A stretch of 18,478 nucleotides of DNA, taken from a virus (taxonomy: Duplodnaviria > Heunggongvirae > Uroviricota > Caudoviricetes). The notes under the pieces are model-generated. The model was given only the letters and a program-made list of their open reading frames with translations. It was not told the DNA's origin and made no database searches. Shown in pieces: positions 1 to 18,478 of this stretch. The stretch is from the IMG/VR virus record IMGVR_UViG_2802429220_000018, positions 1-18,478 of that record. One strand, 5' to 3'. A program made the position numbers and the translations under genes. Each line of letters begins with the position of its first letter. Within the stretch, counting starts at the first letter, position 1.

Positions 1-339
1 CGGGAAATTGAGGCATGGCGCGACAGTCAGGAAAACGTTGAGTTTATTTTCACGTTTGATGGCCGTCGTTTTGATGGTGGAAAAACCTCGCAGTCACGCC
101 TTGCCCCCGTGGTTGCAGCAGCACAGGCCGGACTGCTTCCGGATGGTTTTTTCTGGACTGATGCGGATAATAACAACGTCGTACTGACCAGGGAGAAACT
201 TATTGCGCTGAACGATGCCATGATGGTGGCCATGGTGGCGGAGGGCTTTAAAATCCACGAACGCCAGCGCGAGATGAAAGAGCAACTTTCCCTGCTGTCC
301 ACACTGAGCGATATAAGAGCGTTAACGCCCGGTTATTAA
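1..339 (+). CDS. 3' end of a 5'-truncated ORF (112 codons in window) of unknown function; does not match any lambda head or tail protein I recognise
   Basis: Frame 1 is open from base 1 to TAA at 337-339 (...FFWTDADNNNVVLTREKLIALNDAMMVAMVAEGFKIHERQREMKEQLSLLSTLSDIRALTPGY). The ORF track starts it at 109 only because the window cuts the 5' end. Coding-like composition; no family assignment possible by eye. Confidence 0.4.
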   Translation, partial: REIEAWRDSQENVEFIFTFDGRRFDGGKTSQSRLAPVVAAAQAGLLPDGFFWTDADNNNVVLTREKLIALNDAMMVAMVAEGFKIHERQREMKEQLSLLSTLSDIRALTPGY

Positions 340-362
340 GTAATCATTTTATATAGTTTATA

Positions 363-388
363 ACGATCGATACAATCGTATCGATCGT
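363..388. promoter_or_regulatory. Perfect 11-bp inverted repeat (acgatcgatac / gtatcgatcgt, 4-bp spacer) carrying two GATC Dam sites, about 75-100 bp upstream of com; candidate methylation-sensitive operator
   Basis: Read directly: arms 363-373 and 378-388 are exact reverse complements; GATC at 365-368 and 383-386, a third GATC at 458-461 abutting the com ATG. AT-rich TATA-like stretch at 345-362. In Mu, mom transcription is controlled by Dam methylation of GATC sites upstream of the promoter (OxyR binds the unmethylated sites). Confidence 0.4.
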
Positions 389-461
389 CAGTTTGCATCA
401 TCTGTGATTAAATACCCTGGCCCTCAGGGCTGTCGTATCTGGTTAATACACAGGTGGGATC

Positions 462-647
462 ATGGATGCTGTTCGTTGTAAAAACTGCAATAAATTGCTG
501 TTTAAAGGAAGTTTTAAGCATATAGAAATCAAATGCCCTCGTTGTAAACGTTACATTGTCATGTCGAGTGCCCGGGAGCATCCCACGGAGCTGTATTGTG
601 GGAAAAGAGAAGAAATCACGCATTCTTACAAAACCCTGCGTTATTGA
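462..647 (+). CDS. com: Com-like zinc-finger translational activator (Mu Com homologue), 61 aa
   Basis: ATG 462 with AGGTGG 5-6 nt upstream. Four-Cys zinc knuckle CKNC...CPRC (C6, C9, C25, C28). The string [16 protein letters not shown]...[11 protein letters not shown]...HPTE..CGKRE.ITHS matches my recollection of Mu Com closely. The 3' end overlaps the next gene as com overlaps mom in Mu. Confidence 0.75.
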
Positions 648-1314
648 ATATGAAGGCCGTATTGTCGGCTATGGTTCAAGGGAACTGCGCGTTGAAACCA
701 TATCCTGCTGGCTGGCCCGCACAATCATTCAGACAAAGCACTATTCCCGCCGTTTTGTGAATAACTCCTACCTGCATCTGGGGGTATTCAGCGGACGTGA
801 TCTGGTTGGCGTTCTCCAGTGGGGATATGCCCTTAATCCCAACTCAGGGCGTCGGGTCGTGCCAGGAACGGATAACCGGGGCTATATGGAACTGAACCGC
901 ATGTGGTTACACGACGACATGCCCCGCAACTCTGAATCACGGGCCATCAGCTACGCACTGAAAACCATCAGGTTACTGTATCCGTCAGTGGAGTGGGTTC
1001 AGTCCTTTGCAGACGAACGCTGCGGACGTGCAGGTGTTGTGTATCAGGCGTCGAATTTTGATTTTATTGGTAGCCACGAAAGCACGTTCTACGAACTGGA
1101 CGGCGAGTGGTATCACGAGATAACGATGAACGCGATTAAGCGTGGAGGACAACGAGGCGAGTATTTACGGGCTAATAAGGAGCGGGCGGTGGTACACAAA
1201 TTTAATCAGTATCGCTACATCAGATTCCTGAACAAGCGCGCAAGGAAGCGATTAAATACTAAGCTATTCAGGATTCAGCCATACCCAAAAACACGCCAGA
1301 TTAGTATCAAATAA
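598..1314 (+). CDS. mom: Mom-like DNA modification protein (Mu Mom family, acyltransferase-like adenine-modifying enzyme); start uncertain (GTG 598 preferred, TTG 556 is the longest ORF)
   Basis: The ORF overlaps the com 3' end in another frame, the Mu com-mom arrangement. The conserved core ...[24 protein letters not shown]...[26 protein letters not shown]... resembles Mu Mom as I recall it. GTG 598 has GGAG 7 nt upstream, and both lie in a potential stem (tcccac 581-586 / gtggga 598-603) that would sequester the start site. TAA at 1312-1314. Confidence 0.7.
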
Positions 1315-11547: not shown

Positions 11548-12147
11548 ATGCGTAAACTTTATGCCGCCATTTTTTCCGCAGCCATCTGTCTGGCCGTATC
11601 CGGTGCGCCTGCATGGGCATCTGAACATCAGTCCACGCTGAGCGCGGGGTATCTTCATGCCTCGACGAACGTTCCCGGCAGCGATGATCTGAACGGGATT
11701 AACGTGAAATACCGTTATGAGTTTACGGATACGCTGGGGATGGTGACGTCATTCAGCTATGCAGGAGACAAGAATCGCCAGCTTACCCGTTACAGCGATA
11801 CCCGCTGGCATGAAGATTCCGTGCGTAACCGCTGGTTCAGCGTGATGGCGGGGCCGTCTGTGCGCGTGAATGAATGGTTCAGCGCGTATGCGATGGCGGG
11901 TATGGCTTACAGCCGTGTTTCGACGTTCTCCGGGGATTATCTCCGCGTAACTGACAACAAGGGGAAAACGCACGATGTGCTGACCGGAAGTGATGGCGGT
12001 CGCCACAGCAACACGTCTCTGGCGTGGGGGGCTGGCGTGCAGTTTAACCCGACCGAATCCGTGGCCATTGACCTTGCTTATGAAGGTTCCGGCAGTGGCG
12101 ACTGGCGCACTGACGGTTTCATCGTGGGTGTCGGTTATAAATTCTGA
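11548..12147 (+). CDS. lom: Lom / Ail family outer-membrane beta-barrel protein (199 aa, signal peptide)
   Basis: ATG 11548 with GAGAGG about 6 nt upstream. N-terminal signal peptide [24 protein letters not shown]; C-terminus ...[26 protein letters not shown] is the Ail/Lom/PagC signature ending in an aromatic residue; same position as lambda lom. Confidence 0.9.
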
Positions 12148-12173
12148 TTAGCCAGGTAACACAGTGTTATGAC

Positions 12174-12200
12174 AGCCCGTCGGTTCAGGCGGGCTTTTTT
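12174..12200 (+). terminator. Rho-independent terminator after lom
   Basis: agcccg-loop-cgggct stem (12174-12195) followed by TTTTTT (12195-12200). Confidence 0.7.
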
Positions 12201-12211
12201 GTGGAGTGGAT

Positions 12212-14587
12212 ATGGCAGCAGTAAAAATCTCAGGTGTGCTGAAAGATGGTGCGGGAAAACCAATACAGAACTGCACTATTCAACTGAAGGCAAAGCGTAA
12301 CAGCACCACGGTACTGGTGAACACGGTGGCCTCTGAAAATCCGGATGAAGCCGGGCGTTACAGCATGGACGTTGAGTATGGCCAGTACAGCGTTATCCTG
12401 CTGGTTGAAGGTTTTCCGCCTTCACATGCCGGAACCATTACCGTCTATGAAGGTTCCAGACCAGGTACGCTGAATGATTTTCTCGGTGCCATGACGGAAG
12501 ATGATGTCATGCCGGAGGCATTGCGTCGTTTTGAGGCAATGGTGGAAGAAGCGGCACACAACGCTGAAGCCGCCTCTCAGAGCGCAGCGGCGGCAAAGAA
12601 ATCCGAAGCTGCTGCGGCATCATCGAAGAACGCGGCGAAAAGCTCAGAAACGAATGCAGCTAACAGCGCACAGGCGGCAGCGGCCTCACAGACTGCATCG
12701 GCAAACTCCGCGACAGCAGCCCAAAAATCAGAAACCAACGCGAAAAATAGCGAAACAGCCGCAAAGACGAGCGAAACCAACGCAAAGTCCAGCCAGACGT
12801 CAGCGAAAACAAGCGAAACGAATGCCAAAACCAGTGAAACTGCGGCGAAAAGCAGTCAGGCTGCAGCAGCCGAAAGCGAGAGTGCTGCAGCCGGTTCTGC
12901 GACTTCAGCAGCTGGATCAGCAACTGCTGCGGCTAACAGCCAGAAAGCAGCGAAGACGAGCGAAACTAACGCAAAGTCCAGCCAGACGGCAGCGAAGACC
13001 AGCGAAACGAATGCCAAAGCCAGCGAAACTGCGGCGAAAAACAGTCAGGATGCAGCGGCCCAAAGCGAGAGTGCCGCAGCTGGTTCTGCAAGTGCGGCGG
13101 CTTCTTCTGCCACTGCATCAGCCAACAGTCAAAAAGCTGCAAAAACCAGTGAAACCAACGCAAAGGCGAGCGAGACTGCGGCGGCTAACTCGGCGAAAGC
13201 ATCCGCTGCAAGCCAGACGGCTGCAAAAGCAAGTGAAGACGCAGCCAGAGAGTATGCAAGCCAGGCTGCGGAGCCGTATAAACAAGTTTTGCAGCCGCTT
13301 CCCGATGTGTGGATACCGTTTAACGATTCACTGGATATGATTACGGGCTTTTCGCCGTCATATAAAAAGATTGTTATTGGTGATGATGAAATAACGATGC
13401 CTGGCGATAAGGTTGTAAAGTTTAAACGCGCATCGAAAGCAACCTATATTAATAAATCTGGTGTGCTGACAGAGGCTGCCATTGACGAGCCACGATTTGA
13501 ACGTGATGGCCTGCTTATTGAGGGGCAAAGAACAAACTACATGCTCAATTCGGAAAACCCTGCCAGTTGGGGGCGATCGTCAAATATGGATGTTCCCGAA
13601 ACCGGGAAGGATAGTTTTGGTTTTACCTATGGAAAGTTTGTCTGTAACGATTCTCTGATTGGGCAAACCTCAGCCATTAATATGGCATCAATTGCTGCAA
13701 CAAAGTCAGTTGATGTCTCAGGCGATAATAAATACGTGACAACCTCATGTCGTTTTAAAACAGAACTGCAGGTAAGGTTGCGTATCCGGTTTGATAAATA
13801 TGACGGTAGCGCAACAACTTTTCTTGGTGATGCGTATATTGATACACAAACGCTTGAAATTAATATGACAGGCGGCGCTGCCTCAAGGATTACAGCGAGA
13901 GTCAGAAAGGACGAAGCTACCGGATGGATTTTTGCAGAGGCAACAATTCAGGCAATTGATGGGGAGTTAAAAATAGGTTCTCAGATACAGTATTCTCCTA
14001 AGCAGGGCGGGGCAACCGTATCTGGTGACTATATTTATCTGGCCACCCCACAAGTAGAAAATGGGCCTTGTGTATCATCTTTTATTATATCAGGAACGAC
14101 GGCGGCGACCCGCGCAAGCGATATAGTTACAGTTCCCATTAAGAATAATCTTTATAATCTTCCTTTTACGGTTCTTTGTGAGGTACATAAGAACTGGTAT
14201 AAAACGCCAAATGCAGCGCCGCGTGTTTTTGACACCGGCGGTCATCAAACCGGAGCGGCAATTATTCTTGGATTCGGTTCTTCAGCAGATTACGACGGAT
14301 TTCCTTATTGCGATATTGGAGGAGCTAACAGACGGGTAAACGAAAACGCATTGCTTGAAAAAATGGTTATGGGGATGCGTGTAAAGTCAGATCAGTCTAC
14401 GTGCTCAGTAAGTAACGGGCGTATATCCAGCCAAACAAAAACCACATGGTCCTATATTCAGAACACCGCAATTATCCGTATTGGAGGCCAAACTACAGCC
14501 GGGTTACGTCATTTATTTGGTCATGTCAGGAATTTCAGAATATGGCACAAGGCATTGACTGATGCTCAGGTGGGGGAGTCAATCTAA
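12212..14587 (+). CDS. stf: Side tail fibre protein (Stf-like, 791 aa from ATG 12212): lambda-like N-terminus, Ala/Ser/Thr/Lys-rich repeat shaft, non-lambda C-terminal domain
   Basis: ATG 12212 with GGAG about 6 nt upstream (the track start 12206 is a GTG two codons earlier). The N-terminus MAAVKISGVLKDGAGKPIQNCTIQLKAKRNSTT... matches lambda Stf as I recall it. The central region is built of KTSETNAKSSQTAAK-type repeats; the C-terminal approx 440 aa is not like lambda Stf, but I did not compare the C-terminus carefully. Confidence 0.85.
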   Translation: MAAVKISGVLKDGAGKPIQNCTIQLKAKRNSTTVLVNTVASENPDEAGRYSMDVEYGQYSVILLVEGFPPSHAGTITVYEGSRPGTLNDFLGAMTEDDVMPEALRRFEAMVEEAAHNAEAASQSAAAAKKSEAAAASSKNAAKSSETNAANSAQAAAASQTASANSATAAQKSETNAKNSETAAKTSETNAKSSQTSAKTSETNAKTSETAAKSSQAAAAESESAAAGSATSAAGSATAAANSQKAAKTSETNAKSSQTAAKTSETNAKASETAAKNSQDAAAQSESAAAGSASAAASSATASANSQKAAKTSETNAKASETAAANSAKASAASQTAAKASEDAAREYASQAAEPYKQVLQPLPDVWIPFNDSLDMITGFSPSYKKIVIGDDEITMPGDKVVKFKRASKATYINKSGVLTEAAIDEPRFERDGLLIEGQRTNYMLNSENPASWGRSSNMDVPETGKDSFGFTYGKFVCNDSLIGQTSAINMASIAATKSVDVSGDNKYVTTSCRFKTELQVRLRIRFDKYDGSATTFLGDAYIDTQTLEINMTGGAASRITARVRKDEATGWIFAEATIQAIDGELKIGSQIQYSPKQGGATVSGDYIYLATPQVENGPCVSSFIISGTTAATRASDIVTVPIKNNLYNLPFTVLCEVHKNWYKTPNAAPRVFDTGGHQTGAAIILGFGSSADYDGFPYCDIGGANRRVNENALLEKMVMGMRVKSDQSTCSVSNGRISSQTKTTWSYIQNTAIIRIGGQTTAGLRHLFGHVRNFRIWHKALTDAQVGESI
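12764..13250 (+). repeat. In-frame tandem repeat of a 189-bp unit (about 2.5 copies) inside stf, with more degenerate 21-bp sub-repeats extending upstream to about 12590
   Basis: Unit starts aagacgagcgaaaccaacgcaaagtccagccagacg at 12764 and 12953, with a diverged third copy at 13142; this gives two near-identical 63-aa protein blocks. Confidence 0.8.
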
Positions 14588-16735: not shown

Positions 16736-18478
16736 TCATAATTTGTTAATGGCAATTTTAACTGTTCTGTTTAGATCGTATATGGCTCCAAATTTAAAGC
16801 TTTCTTTATAGGAAAGGCAAAAAATATCAAGTTTTTGACTAAGATAAATAAGTTTGTTTTTTTCATTAGTGGCGAATTGTTTTATGTTGCTGATTTGATA
16901 GTTGCTACGCAAGAAAGAACTAAATTGCTCAATATCATTAACTGCCCAATTCTTTAAAACGCATTTTGTTACAAATGATACACCTAGTACTTCAAGCGGC
17001 TTATAATTTCCGAATGGATCTAAAGTGGTTAATTGGTTAGCATTGAATGATGCCCAGCCATTCAATTCTAATTGCAACTTAATAGTGTTGAGTTCACGCA
17101 TTTTGATCGTGCTTTCATAACGGTAAAATGAAATTGAGTACAGCAATTTGCTATCTTCAAAACCACTATTTAAGCTATTTTTTCTATCAAGTGAGTATAG
17201 CTCAAAGCATTCTGCAACTTCATTGTCAGTGAATCCGTTCAGAATCGAAGTGACAAACTTTAGAGTTATAATTGGTGATTTTGGTAGGTATTTATGTGTG
17301 GTTAAATACTCATAATTCTGAAACGCTTTTATCCATTCATAGAAATTACAGTCAATCTTACGGCAAATTAAGTCGACAAGTGTATTTGAAAGTTCCTTTT
17401 CATTTATCTCATGTAATTCTGGACGTGCTGATATTGCAATTTCTCTCATAGTAAGCCGTTTTGCTTCATAAAACAAAACATCCAATATGTCATTTAATGA
17501 AGCTTGTCCGCTATAATACCTTTTAATCTCAGGTTTTATTTTGTAATTATTCAATGCTAACCATAGCACTCTCTCACTATCACTTGATTTCTCGGTGTTT
17601 AATAAAAAAGTTGGATCTTTGTCCTTGAGAAGATCCTCAAGAGAGTGATTATGCAAAAATAATAAAATGAAGAAAGAGCATATTGAGTTTAAAAGAATTG
17701 TTGATGGTATTCGCCAAGAAAGATGAGGATATGATTTAACGTATTCATATAATGGCGTAACTGTGTCCAAAATACGCATCAAAATACGGATGTTAACTAT
17801 GTTGTTATTTTTTACTATATCCTCAAAGAGAATTTTATCTTCCTGTGGGAATTGGGAAAGCTTTCCATTTATTATATCTATATCCAATATTTCCTCTGGA
17901 TGCGGATTATAATGAAGTGTTTCTGCAATGAGTTTTTCCTTGTGTTCTATTTTTAAACCAGACTCAGTTGATGTATTGGTAATAATAATAAAGTCTAAAT
18001 TTGAGTTCATCTCGGACATATAAAGAGAATGGCAATATGTCAAAATTTCACTAACTAATGATTTTTCGGATATTCTCTCTATATCATCCAATATAAAAAT
18101 ACCATCCAGTTTTGATAAAATGTTTTCTCTAACACTTGCACCAATAGAATTAAACATGCTGTTAATAATATTGGCACTTGCAGGTGAGCCGCTGGCAATG
18201 CTACCTATCCCTGATAGACTTTCGAGCCCGGATTTAAATGTTTGTATATCTTGCAGGTAGTAACAATCTATAATTTTAGCTTTGAAATCTGATAAGGATT
18301 TAATACCTAGTAAAGAAATATAATAGAAAATGTTTTTATCATAGTACTTGGGGAATTTTTTTCTGATAAAGTGAGTCTTTCCTGTGCCCCAGCTCCCATC
18401 AAGCAAAATCAGACCATCTCTTTTTTGTGAAAGTAGATGTATTATTTTTATAATAAGATTGCTGTTAGAGTATTTCAT
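16736..18478 (-). CDS. KAP-family P-loop NTPase (580 aa); AT-rich, likely horizontally acquired cargo; start codon at the last window base
   Basis: Minus-strand ORF with ATG at 18476-18478 and TGA at 16736-16738. Walker A in the KAP form GSWGTGKT (residues 28-35, LLDGSWGTGKTHF); Walker B-like IFILDDIER (compare the KAP DDLDR motif). The DNA is strongly AT-rich compared with the tail genes. Confidence 0.7.
   Translation of the reverse strand: MKYSNSNLIIKIIHLLSQKRDGLILLDGSWGTGKTHFIRKKFPKYYDKNIFYYISLLGIKSLSDFKAKIIDCYYLQDIQTFKSGLESLSGIGSIASGSPASANIINSMFNSIGASVRENILSKLDGIFILDDIERISEKSLVSEILTYCHSLYMSEMNSNLDFIIITNTSTESGLKIEHKEKLIAETLHYNPHPEEILDIDIINGKLSQFPQEDKILFEDIVKNNNIVNIRILMRILDTVTPLYEYVKSYPHLSWRIPSTILLNSICSFFILLFLHNHSLEDLLKDKDPTFLLNTEKSSDSERVLWLALNNYKIKPEIKRYYSGQASLNDILDVLFYEAKRLTMREIAISARPELHEINEKELSNTLVDLICRKIDCNFYEWIKAFQNYEYLTTHKYLPKSPIITLKFVTSILNGFTDNEVAECFELYSLDRKNSLNSGFEDSKLLYSISFYRYESTIKMRELNTIKLQLELNGWASFNANQLTTLDPFGNYKPLEVLGVSFVTKCVLKNWAVNDIEQFSSFLRSNYQISNIKQFATNEKNKLIYLSQKLDIFCLSYKESFKFGAIYDLNRTVKIAINKL

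Follow-up and report, generated by a model that had tools for sequence, protein, structure and literature searches.

A two-GATC element upstream of com-mom in a Mu-like prophage as a putative Dam- and OxyR-responsive counterpart of the phage Mu mom operator

Introduction

The DNA directly upstream of com in the window (the whole stretch of 18,478 nucleotides that was analysed) probably carries a com-mom operator homologous to 'region I' of phage Mu, in which positions 353-389 would mediate Dam-sensitive repression by OxyR and a promoter dependent on a late activator would lie downstream. It appears to be a new, two-GATC example of the known family of Mu mom Dam/OxyR operators and would involve no new mechanism. 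Gene regulation by DNA methylation has a textbook example in the Dam/OxyR control of mom, which to our knowledge has been studied only in phage Mu. The Mu operator, 'region I', comprises three GATC sites that are bound by OxyR (MomR) when unmethylated, and it lies upstream of the C-dependent promoter Pmom. According to the work of Bolker & Kahmann (1989) and Hattman & Sun (1997), as cited in PMC4461284 and PMC2909390, mom is controlled by Dam together with OxyR, which distinguishes methylated from unmethylated DNA, and Dam methylation of the GATC cluster stops OxyR binding and repression. Mom expression is harmful to the cell and occurs late in Mu, and mom is further controlled by Com (PMC3299994).

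Results

Genes and prophage context

Positions 1-1385 of the window are the right end of a Mu-like prophage, with a DUF4376 gene, com and mom, inserted in the lambdoid tail gene U (Table 1). By BLAST, the com-mom genes and right ends of Mu, D108, SfMu and Yersinia Mu-like phages match 472-1385 with about 89-90% DNA identity, the 3' end of lambda gene U matches the sequence from 1386 on at 100%, and a lambdoid tail module (V to J/stf), about 95% identical, makes up the remainder of the window. A transposable prophage is nested in, and disrupts, a lambdoid prophage. At the junction, the Mu-like end at 1385 (…TTTTGCGCGCTTTA) abuts the last ~40 codons of gene U (1381-1506); the right end of Mu, for comparison, we take to be …GCGCCGCTTCA. 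The 1385/1386 junction was absent from every complete E. coli genome in the collection. The closest complete relative, in E. coli 06-00048 (98%), has a Mu-like gene set that includes transposase, Gam, one Mor/C-family activator, lysis, head and contractile tail genes, together with a different tail-fibre module that ends in DUF4376-com-mom.

The DUF4376 gene is the last structural gene of the Mu-like prophage ahead of com, and the gap of 122 bp between the two contains the putative operator, directly upstream of com. The identity of the open reading frame at 462 as com, proposed in the first-pass annotation of this DNA, was confirmed by its Pfam match. The GTG start of mom that overlaps com is also the one annotated in Mu, and 848 Mom homologues were found. 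Around this start (581-603), CCCAC (581-585) and GTGGG (598-602) flank the GTG, as they do in Mu (CATCCCACGGAG…ATTGTGGGAAAAG). Such a CCCAC/GTGGG pair forms a stem that hides the mom start until Com opens it, and its presence on both sides of the start as in Mu suggests that the translational control of mom is conserved in this lineage. Further downstream, a 15-bp direct repeat, GTATCAAATAATTTT, is found at 1304-1318, where it overlaps the mom stop codon, and at 1361-1375. The same 1304-1375 region holds a third copy that is only partial (1339-1353) as well as an inverted repeat, CCGTTTTGGG/CCCAAACGG; these repeats may be the right-end transposase-binding sites of the lineage.

Table 1. Features of the com-mom locus and of its upstream region (window coordinates).
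Feature	Position	Strand	Basis
DUF4376 (tail-fibre-associated) gene, 3' part	1..339	+	Pfam PF14301, E = 1e-17; DUF4376 annotation in relatives
Sigma-70-like hexamers TTTATA-N17-TACAAT, candidate promoter, overlaps operator	348..376	+	Consensus scan, 9/12 matches
Putative OxyR operator, two 15-bp half-sites 7 bp apart, both Dam sites inside	353..389	.	Consensus 14/20; Mu homology; conservation
OxyR half-site A (putative), ATAGTTTATAACGAT	353..367	.	9/10; 3' end overlaps GATC-1
Inverted repeat, left arm ACGATCGATAC	363..373	.	Contains GATC-1 at 365-368; 363-372 invariant in 15 variants
Inverted repeat, right arm GTATCGATCGT	378..388	.	Contains GATC-2 at 383-386; 379-388 invariant in 15 variants
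Conserved block TGTGATTAAATACCC..GCCCTCAGGGC, possible late-activator site/-35 region	403..430	+	Conserved in 15 variants; includes 420-430 palindrome
Candidate -10 TATCTG, Mu-late-type activator-dependent promoter	436..441	+	TATCCT in relatives L009/L026/L029; start near 448
Shine-Dalgarno region AGGTGGG and third GATC (458-461)	452..461	+	GATC here only in window and L002
com, zinc-ribbon translational activator of mom	462..647	+	Pfam PF10122; ~89% DNA identity to Mu/D108 com-mom from 472
mom, adenine-modifying enzyme	598..1314	+	Pfam PF25680, E = 3e-76; GTG start overlaps com

The inverted repeat and its GATC sites

The first-pass annotation had described an exact 11-bp inverted repeat with two GATC sites upstream of com, and both observations hold. 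The two arms are 100% complementary across a 4-nt spacer, GATC-1 and GATC-2 are spaced 18 bp apart, and the repeat stands 24 nt past the stop codon of the DUF4376 gene. No other perfect inverted repeat in the 18.5-kb window reaches 11 bp with a loop of 10 nt or less; in dinucleotide shuffles, the mean was 0.07 such repeats per window, and 5% of the shuffles had at least one. The chance expectation of CGATCGA-N10-TCGATCG was 0.06 even with two mismatches allowed. Moreover, GATC is depleted over the whole window (42 observed vs ~68 expected), yet three of these sites fall within the 122-bp intergenic region. By sequence statistics alone, the significance of the repeat is only modest; its conservation among relatives is what sets it clearly apart from chance.

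Conservation was assessed in an alignment of 15 distinct variants of the regulatory region from the lineage. At 352-389, 33 of 38 columns are invariant, against 39 of 75 at 390-461 (Fisher p = 3e-4), which makes the operator the most conserved non-coding block among the variants; even the start of the com coding sequence, with 26 of 33 invariant columns, falls below it. Ten of the 11 pairs of the inverted repeat never vary, so that its conserved form is 10+10 bp, ACGATCGATA/TATCGATCGT. The eleventh pair (373/378) is complementary in only 3 of the 15 variants, position 373 varying freely (A/C/G/T) and 378 being A in 13 of them. A selected compensatory change at C373/G378 was rejected, since 373 is free to vary and 378 is mostly A. 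Since most relatives have instead an outer G-C pair (362/389), lost in the window, and do not pair 373/378, the conserved element is best described as GACGATCGATA-N6-TATCGATCGTC and the perfect 11-bp form as a lineage detail of the window. The perfection of the palindrome, emphasized in the earlier reading, is real in this DNA and seems partly a lineage-specific accident.

Two other elements to which that reading had given weight are present where it placed them and are less conserved. The third GATC does abut the com start codon (ATG at 462), but it occurs only in the window and in its closest relative (L002), with GAATC or AAATT in the other variants, and is probably incidental. The second palindrome, GCCCTCAGGGC at 420-430, retains only its GCCC/GGGC arms in the 15 variants.

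Homology to the Mu mom operator

The Mu record (gin stop codon, annotated late promoter, com) was compared directly, without gaps, with the window. This alignment, of ATATAGTTTATAACGATCGATACAATCGTATCGATCGTCA in the window with ATATAGAAAACGACGATCGAATCAATTAAATCGATCGGTA in Mu, gives 28 identities out of 40 and a common core, ATAG-N7-CGATCGA-N10-TCGATCG, with a GATC spacing of 18 bp in both. The homology to region I was seen only in such an ungapped comparison: blastn of positions 1-480 against phages returned no Mu match, and upstream of 472 no similarity to Mu is detected at BLAST level. On this alignment, the window element is the counterpart of the Mu mom operator in a different Mu-like prophage lineage, and the GATC sites of the palindrome are the positional homologues of Mu sites 1 and 2. 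The first-pass annotation had suggested the logic of Mu with a different site geometry. The logic is supported by the comparison (the ungapped alignment, the ATAG box, the 18-bp spacing and the best OxyR match) and remains putative, whereas the geometry is not different: the Mu-type cluster has three GATC sites (18 + 13 bp), of which the window has the first two, and the real difference is the missing third site. In Mu, this third GATC is located 13 bp downstream of site 2 and is followed by the C-binding site. Its absence from the window concerns the number of sites and not the mechanism.

Both operators precede com and an overlapping mom at the right end of a transposable prophage, and their distances to the promoter are similar if transcription in the window starts near 448. 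They differ in the repeat itself, with arms of 10-11 bp and a 4-nt spacer in the window vs arms of 7 bp and a 10-nt spacer in Mu, and in the upstream gene, which is the DUF4376 tail-fibre gene in the window and gin in Mu, where the homologous sequence overlaps the 3' end of gin. A search with the Mom protein gave 43 com-mom loci in IMG/VR with readable upstream DNA, all of either the Mu class or the window class. Both classes keep the ATAG-N7-CGATCGA-N10-TCGATCG core, and where the gene upstream differs, the mosaic junction falls immediately 5' of the ATAG box. When CGATCGA-N10-TCGATCG itself was sought in IMG/VR, only 3 of the 80 matches listed were com-associated; its 14 specified bases are too few as a search pattern for so large a collection.

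Match to the OxyR consensus

Sites were scored against the OxyR consensus ATAGnTnnnAnCTAT-N7-ATAGnTnnnAnCTAT given in PMC2909390 and PMC4856963. The site at 353-389 is the single best match in the 18.5-kb window, with the same score as agn43 of E. coli K-12 (14 of 20), the Mu mom operator scoring 12-13. No site in the window other than half-site A reaches 9 of 10 consensus positions, and validated OxyR half-sites match 7-10 of 10 (PMC4856963; PMC2909390). Its ATAG-N7-CGATC register is common to the window, to Mu mom (ATAGAAAACGACGAT, 7/10) and to K-12 agn43 (ATAGAATAAAACGAT, 8/10). The second half-site is a poor match (5/10), and the palindrome is centred at 375.5 but the best consensus register at 371; because of this offset and of the weak second half-site, the register that OxyR would adopt on 353-389 is uncertain. 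Over the AT-rich end of the window (17100-18478), the next-best matches, which are spurious, reach 12-13 of 20. The OxyR consensus alone is weak evidence in AT-rich DNA.

The GATC pair at other mom loci

A wider scan, with one genome per species and an alignment of diverse Mom proteins, covered 80 further loci. A GATC pair 18 bp apart (19 bp once) precedes com/mom in about ten sequence-unrelated families from Enterobacterales and one Neptunomonas, namely Enterobacteriaceae MAGs, Scandinavium, Symbiopectobacterium, Pantoea, Apirhabdus and the Neptunomonas, and a third GATC is usually located 13 bp away from the pair. The DNA around the pair has dyad symmetry in 10 families, where 6-9 of the 12 non-GATC positions are complementary vs about 3 expected. 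No such pair was found at ~60 mom loci of alpha- and deltaproteobacteria, Pseudomonas and sphingomonads, and the GATC cluster was also absent at several Serratia/Yersinia mom loci that have no com. Because of these com-less loci, the GATC operator is not universal for mom. At the Serratia/Yersinia loci L175-L181 and L192, the com-less mom is preceded by a conserved, structured-looking G+C-rich sequence (…GATGGGCGCCCCGGAAAGTTGCCGCTCTCCGGGGC…); given this sequence and the lack of both com and the GATC cluster, the control of mom is different at these loci.

Another natural variant with two GATC sites in its mom operator was noted in a Scandinavium MAG (L168, ~1230-1360). Its distance from GATC-2 to the ATG is 79 nt, the same as in the window, its activator box, CACAATAAACCCGG, is much more Mu-like, and its -10 is TATCCT, which ends 17 nt before the ATG vs 20 nt for TATCTG in the window.

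The region between operator and com

In the window, unrelated sequence takes the place of the Mu C-binding site (TTATgccccaATAA), T6 spacer and TAAGAT -10, and neither the C-binding site nor the -10 is recognisably conserved. Within the conserved block at 403-430, AATACCC resembles the ATAACCC box of Mu late promoters (oligonucleotides in PMC4461284), and this block is possibly a late-activator site or -35 region. The TATCCT found in some relatives in place of the candidate -10 has a parallel in the Mu P promoter oligonucleotide, where TATCCT stands 20 nt past the ATAACCCC box (PMC4461284). The stretch that holds the proposed -10 (431-442) is the most variable part of the leader among the 15 variants. 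An RNA hairpin of the leader (383-470) that would sequester the Shine-Dalgarno sequence was considered and rejected (z = -0.7, no covariation), and Rfam covariance models run over 1-1600 at E <= 1 gave no relevant match.

A complete related prophage (L046) and its presumed late promoters were also compared with this region. An exhaustive 12-mer comparison of L046 with the com leader and a regular-expression search of L046 for GCC(C)TCCGG(G)C-like palindromes both returned only chance-level matches. A 44-bp element, (A/G)TGAAGCCGGTAAATCCGGCTTTTTTT(A/C)TGCCTyCsGCA, was noticed in L046 before the lysis (lys) and head protease genes (12498-12540 and 20233-20275); it consists of a terminator-like dyad and a T7 run, reminiscent of the T6 spacer of the Mu lys and mom promoters. 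These elements are possibly late promoters of a lineage that has one Mor/C-family gene, which in L046 occupies 12044-12493, vs two in Mu. The 44-bp element is absent upstream of com.

Discussion

The mechanism of Mu is proposed for this locus because its operator is homologous to that of Mu. The steps are what we infer (OxyR binding, methylation sensitivity, direction of the effect and promoter position) from features that were seen directly, that is the sequence, its conservation, the homology to the Mu operator and the match to the OxyR consensus. The LysR-type regulator OxyR of the host would bind the dyad-symmetric, AT-rich DNA of 353-389 when the GATC adenines (A366, A384 and their complements) are unmethylated or hemimethylated, and bound OxyR would repress com-mom transcription. 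Full Dam methylation of both GATC sites would exclude OxyR. Transcription would then most likely start from a weak downstream promoter dependent on a late activator and composed of an activator-box-like TTAAATACCC at ~408-417, a G+C-rich spacer with the second palindrome and a -10 at ~436-441, with a start at ~448. Such a start would place the GATC sites near -83/-65, vs about -87/-69 in Mu (estimated from the Mu TAAGAT -10), and would give a leader of ~14 nt vs ~22 nt in Mu by our estimate. Com would then activate mom translation, like in Mu.

Methylation-sensitive OxyR sites are known from other switches, among them agn43 (flu) of E. coli. It has the ATAG-N7-CGATC half-site with its first GATC in the same register, and in K-12 it has similar arms (TATCGATCG/CGATCGATA) and similar GATC spacings (19 and 13 bp). 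It differs in having three GATC sites and in the position of its operator, which coincides with or follows the annotated 5' end of the IsrC/flu leader. Moreover, the perfect repeat of agn43 spans GATC-II and GATC-III with its ATA ends outward, whereas that of the window spans sites 1 and 2 with its ATA ends inward. OxyR and Dam compete for the same DNA at agn43 (PMC13337833). At gtr and opvAB of Salmonella, GATC sites likewise lie within OxyR half-sites and their methylation prevents OxyR from binding (PMC2909390, PMC4856963), but these systems have three or four half-sites, four GATC sites and alternative occupancy, with OxyR also acting as an activator, whereas one full OxyR site is recognisable in the window. 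Phase variation of mom, according to PMC2909390, has not been studied.

The likeness to agn43 leads to the strongest of the alternatives, which we nevertheless regard as unlikely: that the operator contains the com-mom promoter (-35 TTTATA/TTGTAT, -10 TACAAT at 371-376, start near GATC-2) and that OxyR directly occludes RNA polymerase, so that Dam/OxyR competition could give bistable com-mom expression in lysogens without the late activator. A consensus scan does give TTTATA-N17-TACAAT at 348-376; in the 15 variants T371, A372, A375 and T376 never change, unlike 373 and 374, and most variants have TTG 16 nt upstream of this TAnnAT. The annotated 5' end of IsrC, upstream of flu in K-12, falls on the G of GATC-I within the agn43 operator, and no terminator or clear -10 was found at 390-450 of the window. 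As evidence for a promoter, the hexamers are weak because the scan found 3 sites where 2.5 were expected from shuffles, and the invariant TA..AT bases coincide with the points where the conserved palindrome arms end on the inside, so that no promoter is needed to explain them. Furthermore, the window itself has TTA, not TTG, at -35, and the homologous Mu sequence, ATCAAT, is not -10-like; we know of no promoter described at that position in Mu. A start near GATC-2 would also imply a 79-nt leader, for which covariation gave no support for structure, and expression in lysogens would sit badly with a Mom that is toxic and, in Mu, a late function (PMC3299994). The further step, that an operator doubling as promoter (TTGTAT/TTTATA-N16-17-TAnnAT, start at GATC-2) makes com-mom an agn43-like heritable ON/OFF switch in lysogens, seems slightly less probable again. 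If it were true, Mom-type hypermodified DNA would be present in a fraction of the cells whether or not the prophage is induced.

Other readings dispense with OxyR or with methylation altogether. The palindrome might be the site of another dimeric regulator, phage-encoded or from the host, the GATC sites being kept as part of a CGATCG/ATCGAT recognition sequence. The dyad is centred between the two GATC sites in all families, which is more in keeping with a simple dimer than with the consensus OxyR register, and the second OxyR half-site is poor; we nevertheless hold this to be improbable, since the homologous Mu site is reported to be OxyR-bound in references cited in PMC4461284 and PMC2909390, the ATAG box is invariant and in the OxyR register shared with agn43 although it is not part of the palindrome, and the GATC pair persists despite unrelated flanks, which points to a Dam target rather than to a long specific operator. 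Less probable still is an RNA hairpin, that is a terminator, pause or processing site that ends the upstream late tail-fibre transcript. The repeat does fold at -16 kcal/mol (z = -5.5 vs shuffles), and its place 24 nt beyond the end of the DUF4376 gene would suit this role, but no U-tract follows 388 (CAGTTTGCATC) and the terminator scan did not list it. Its pairs, of which ten never vary and none covaries in a selected way, fit sequence-specific recognition and not pairing, and the Mu homologue, which overlaps the 3' end of gin, has arms of only 7 bp around a 10-nt spacer. A palindrome arisen by chance and without function is the least credible of all: a perfect repeat of this size does occur in ~5% of shuffled windows, and the eleventh pair and the third GATC indeed look accidental, but invariance over 15 variants, the homology to Mu and the recurrence of the GATC pair in unrelated families speak against it.

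To conclude, our comparison supports the notion that 353-389 is a mom operator of the Mu type in another Mu-like prophage lineage. Its core, the ATAG box and two CGATCG sites 18 bp apart, has been kept while the promoter and activator region was exchanged. A version of the mom operator with two GATC sites occurs in nature, and com-mom is preceded by the same GATC geometry in many unrelated sequence families from Dam-positive hosts. These operators may serve as a natural variant series to determine how many methylated sites the exclusion of OxyR needs, and the GATC geometry provides a simple sequence signature for annotating mom-type operators.
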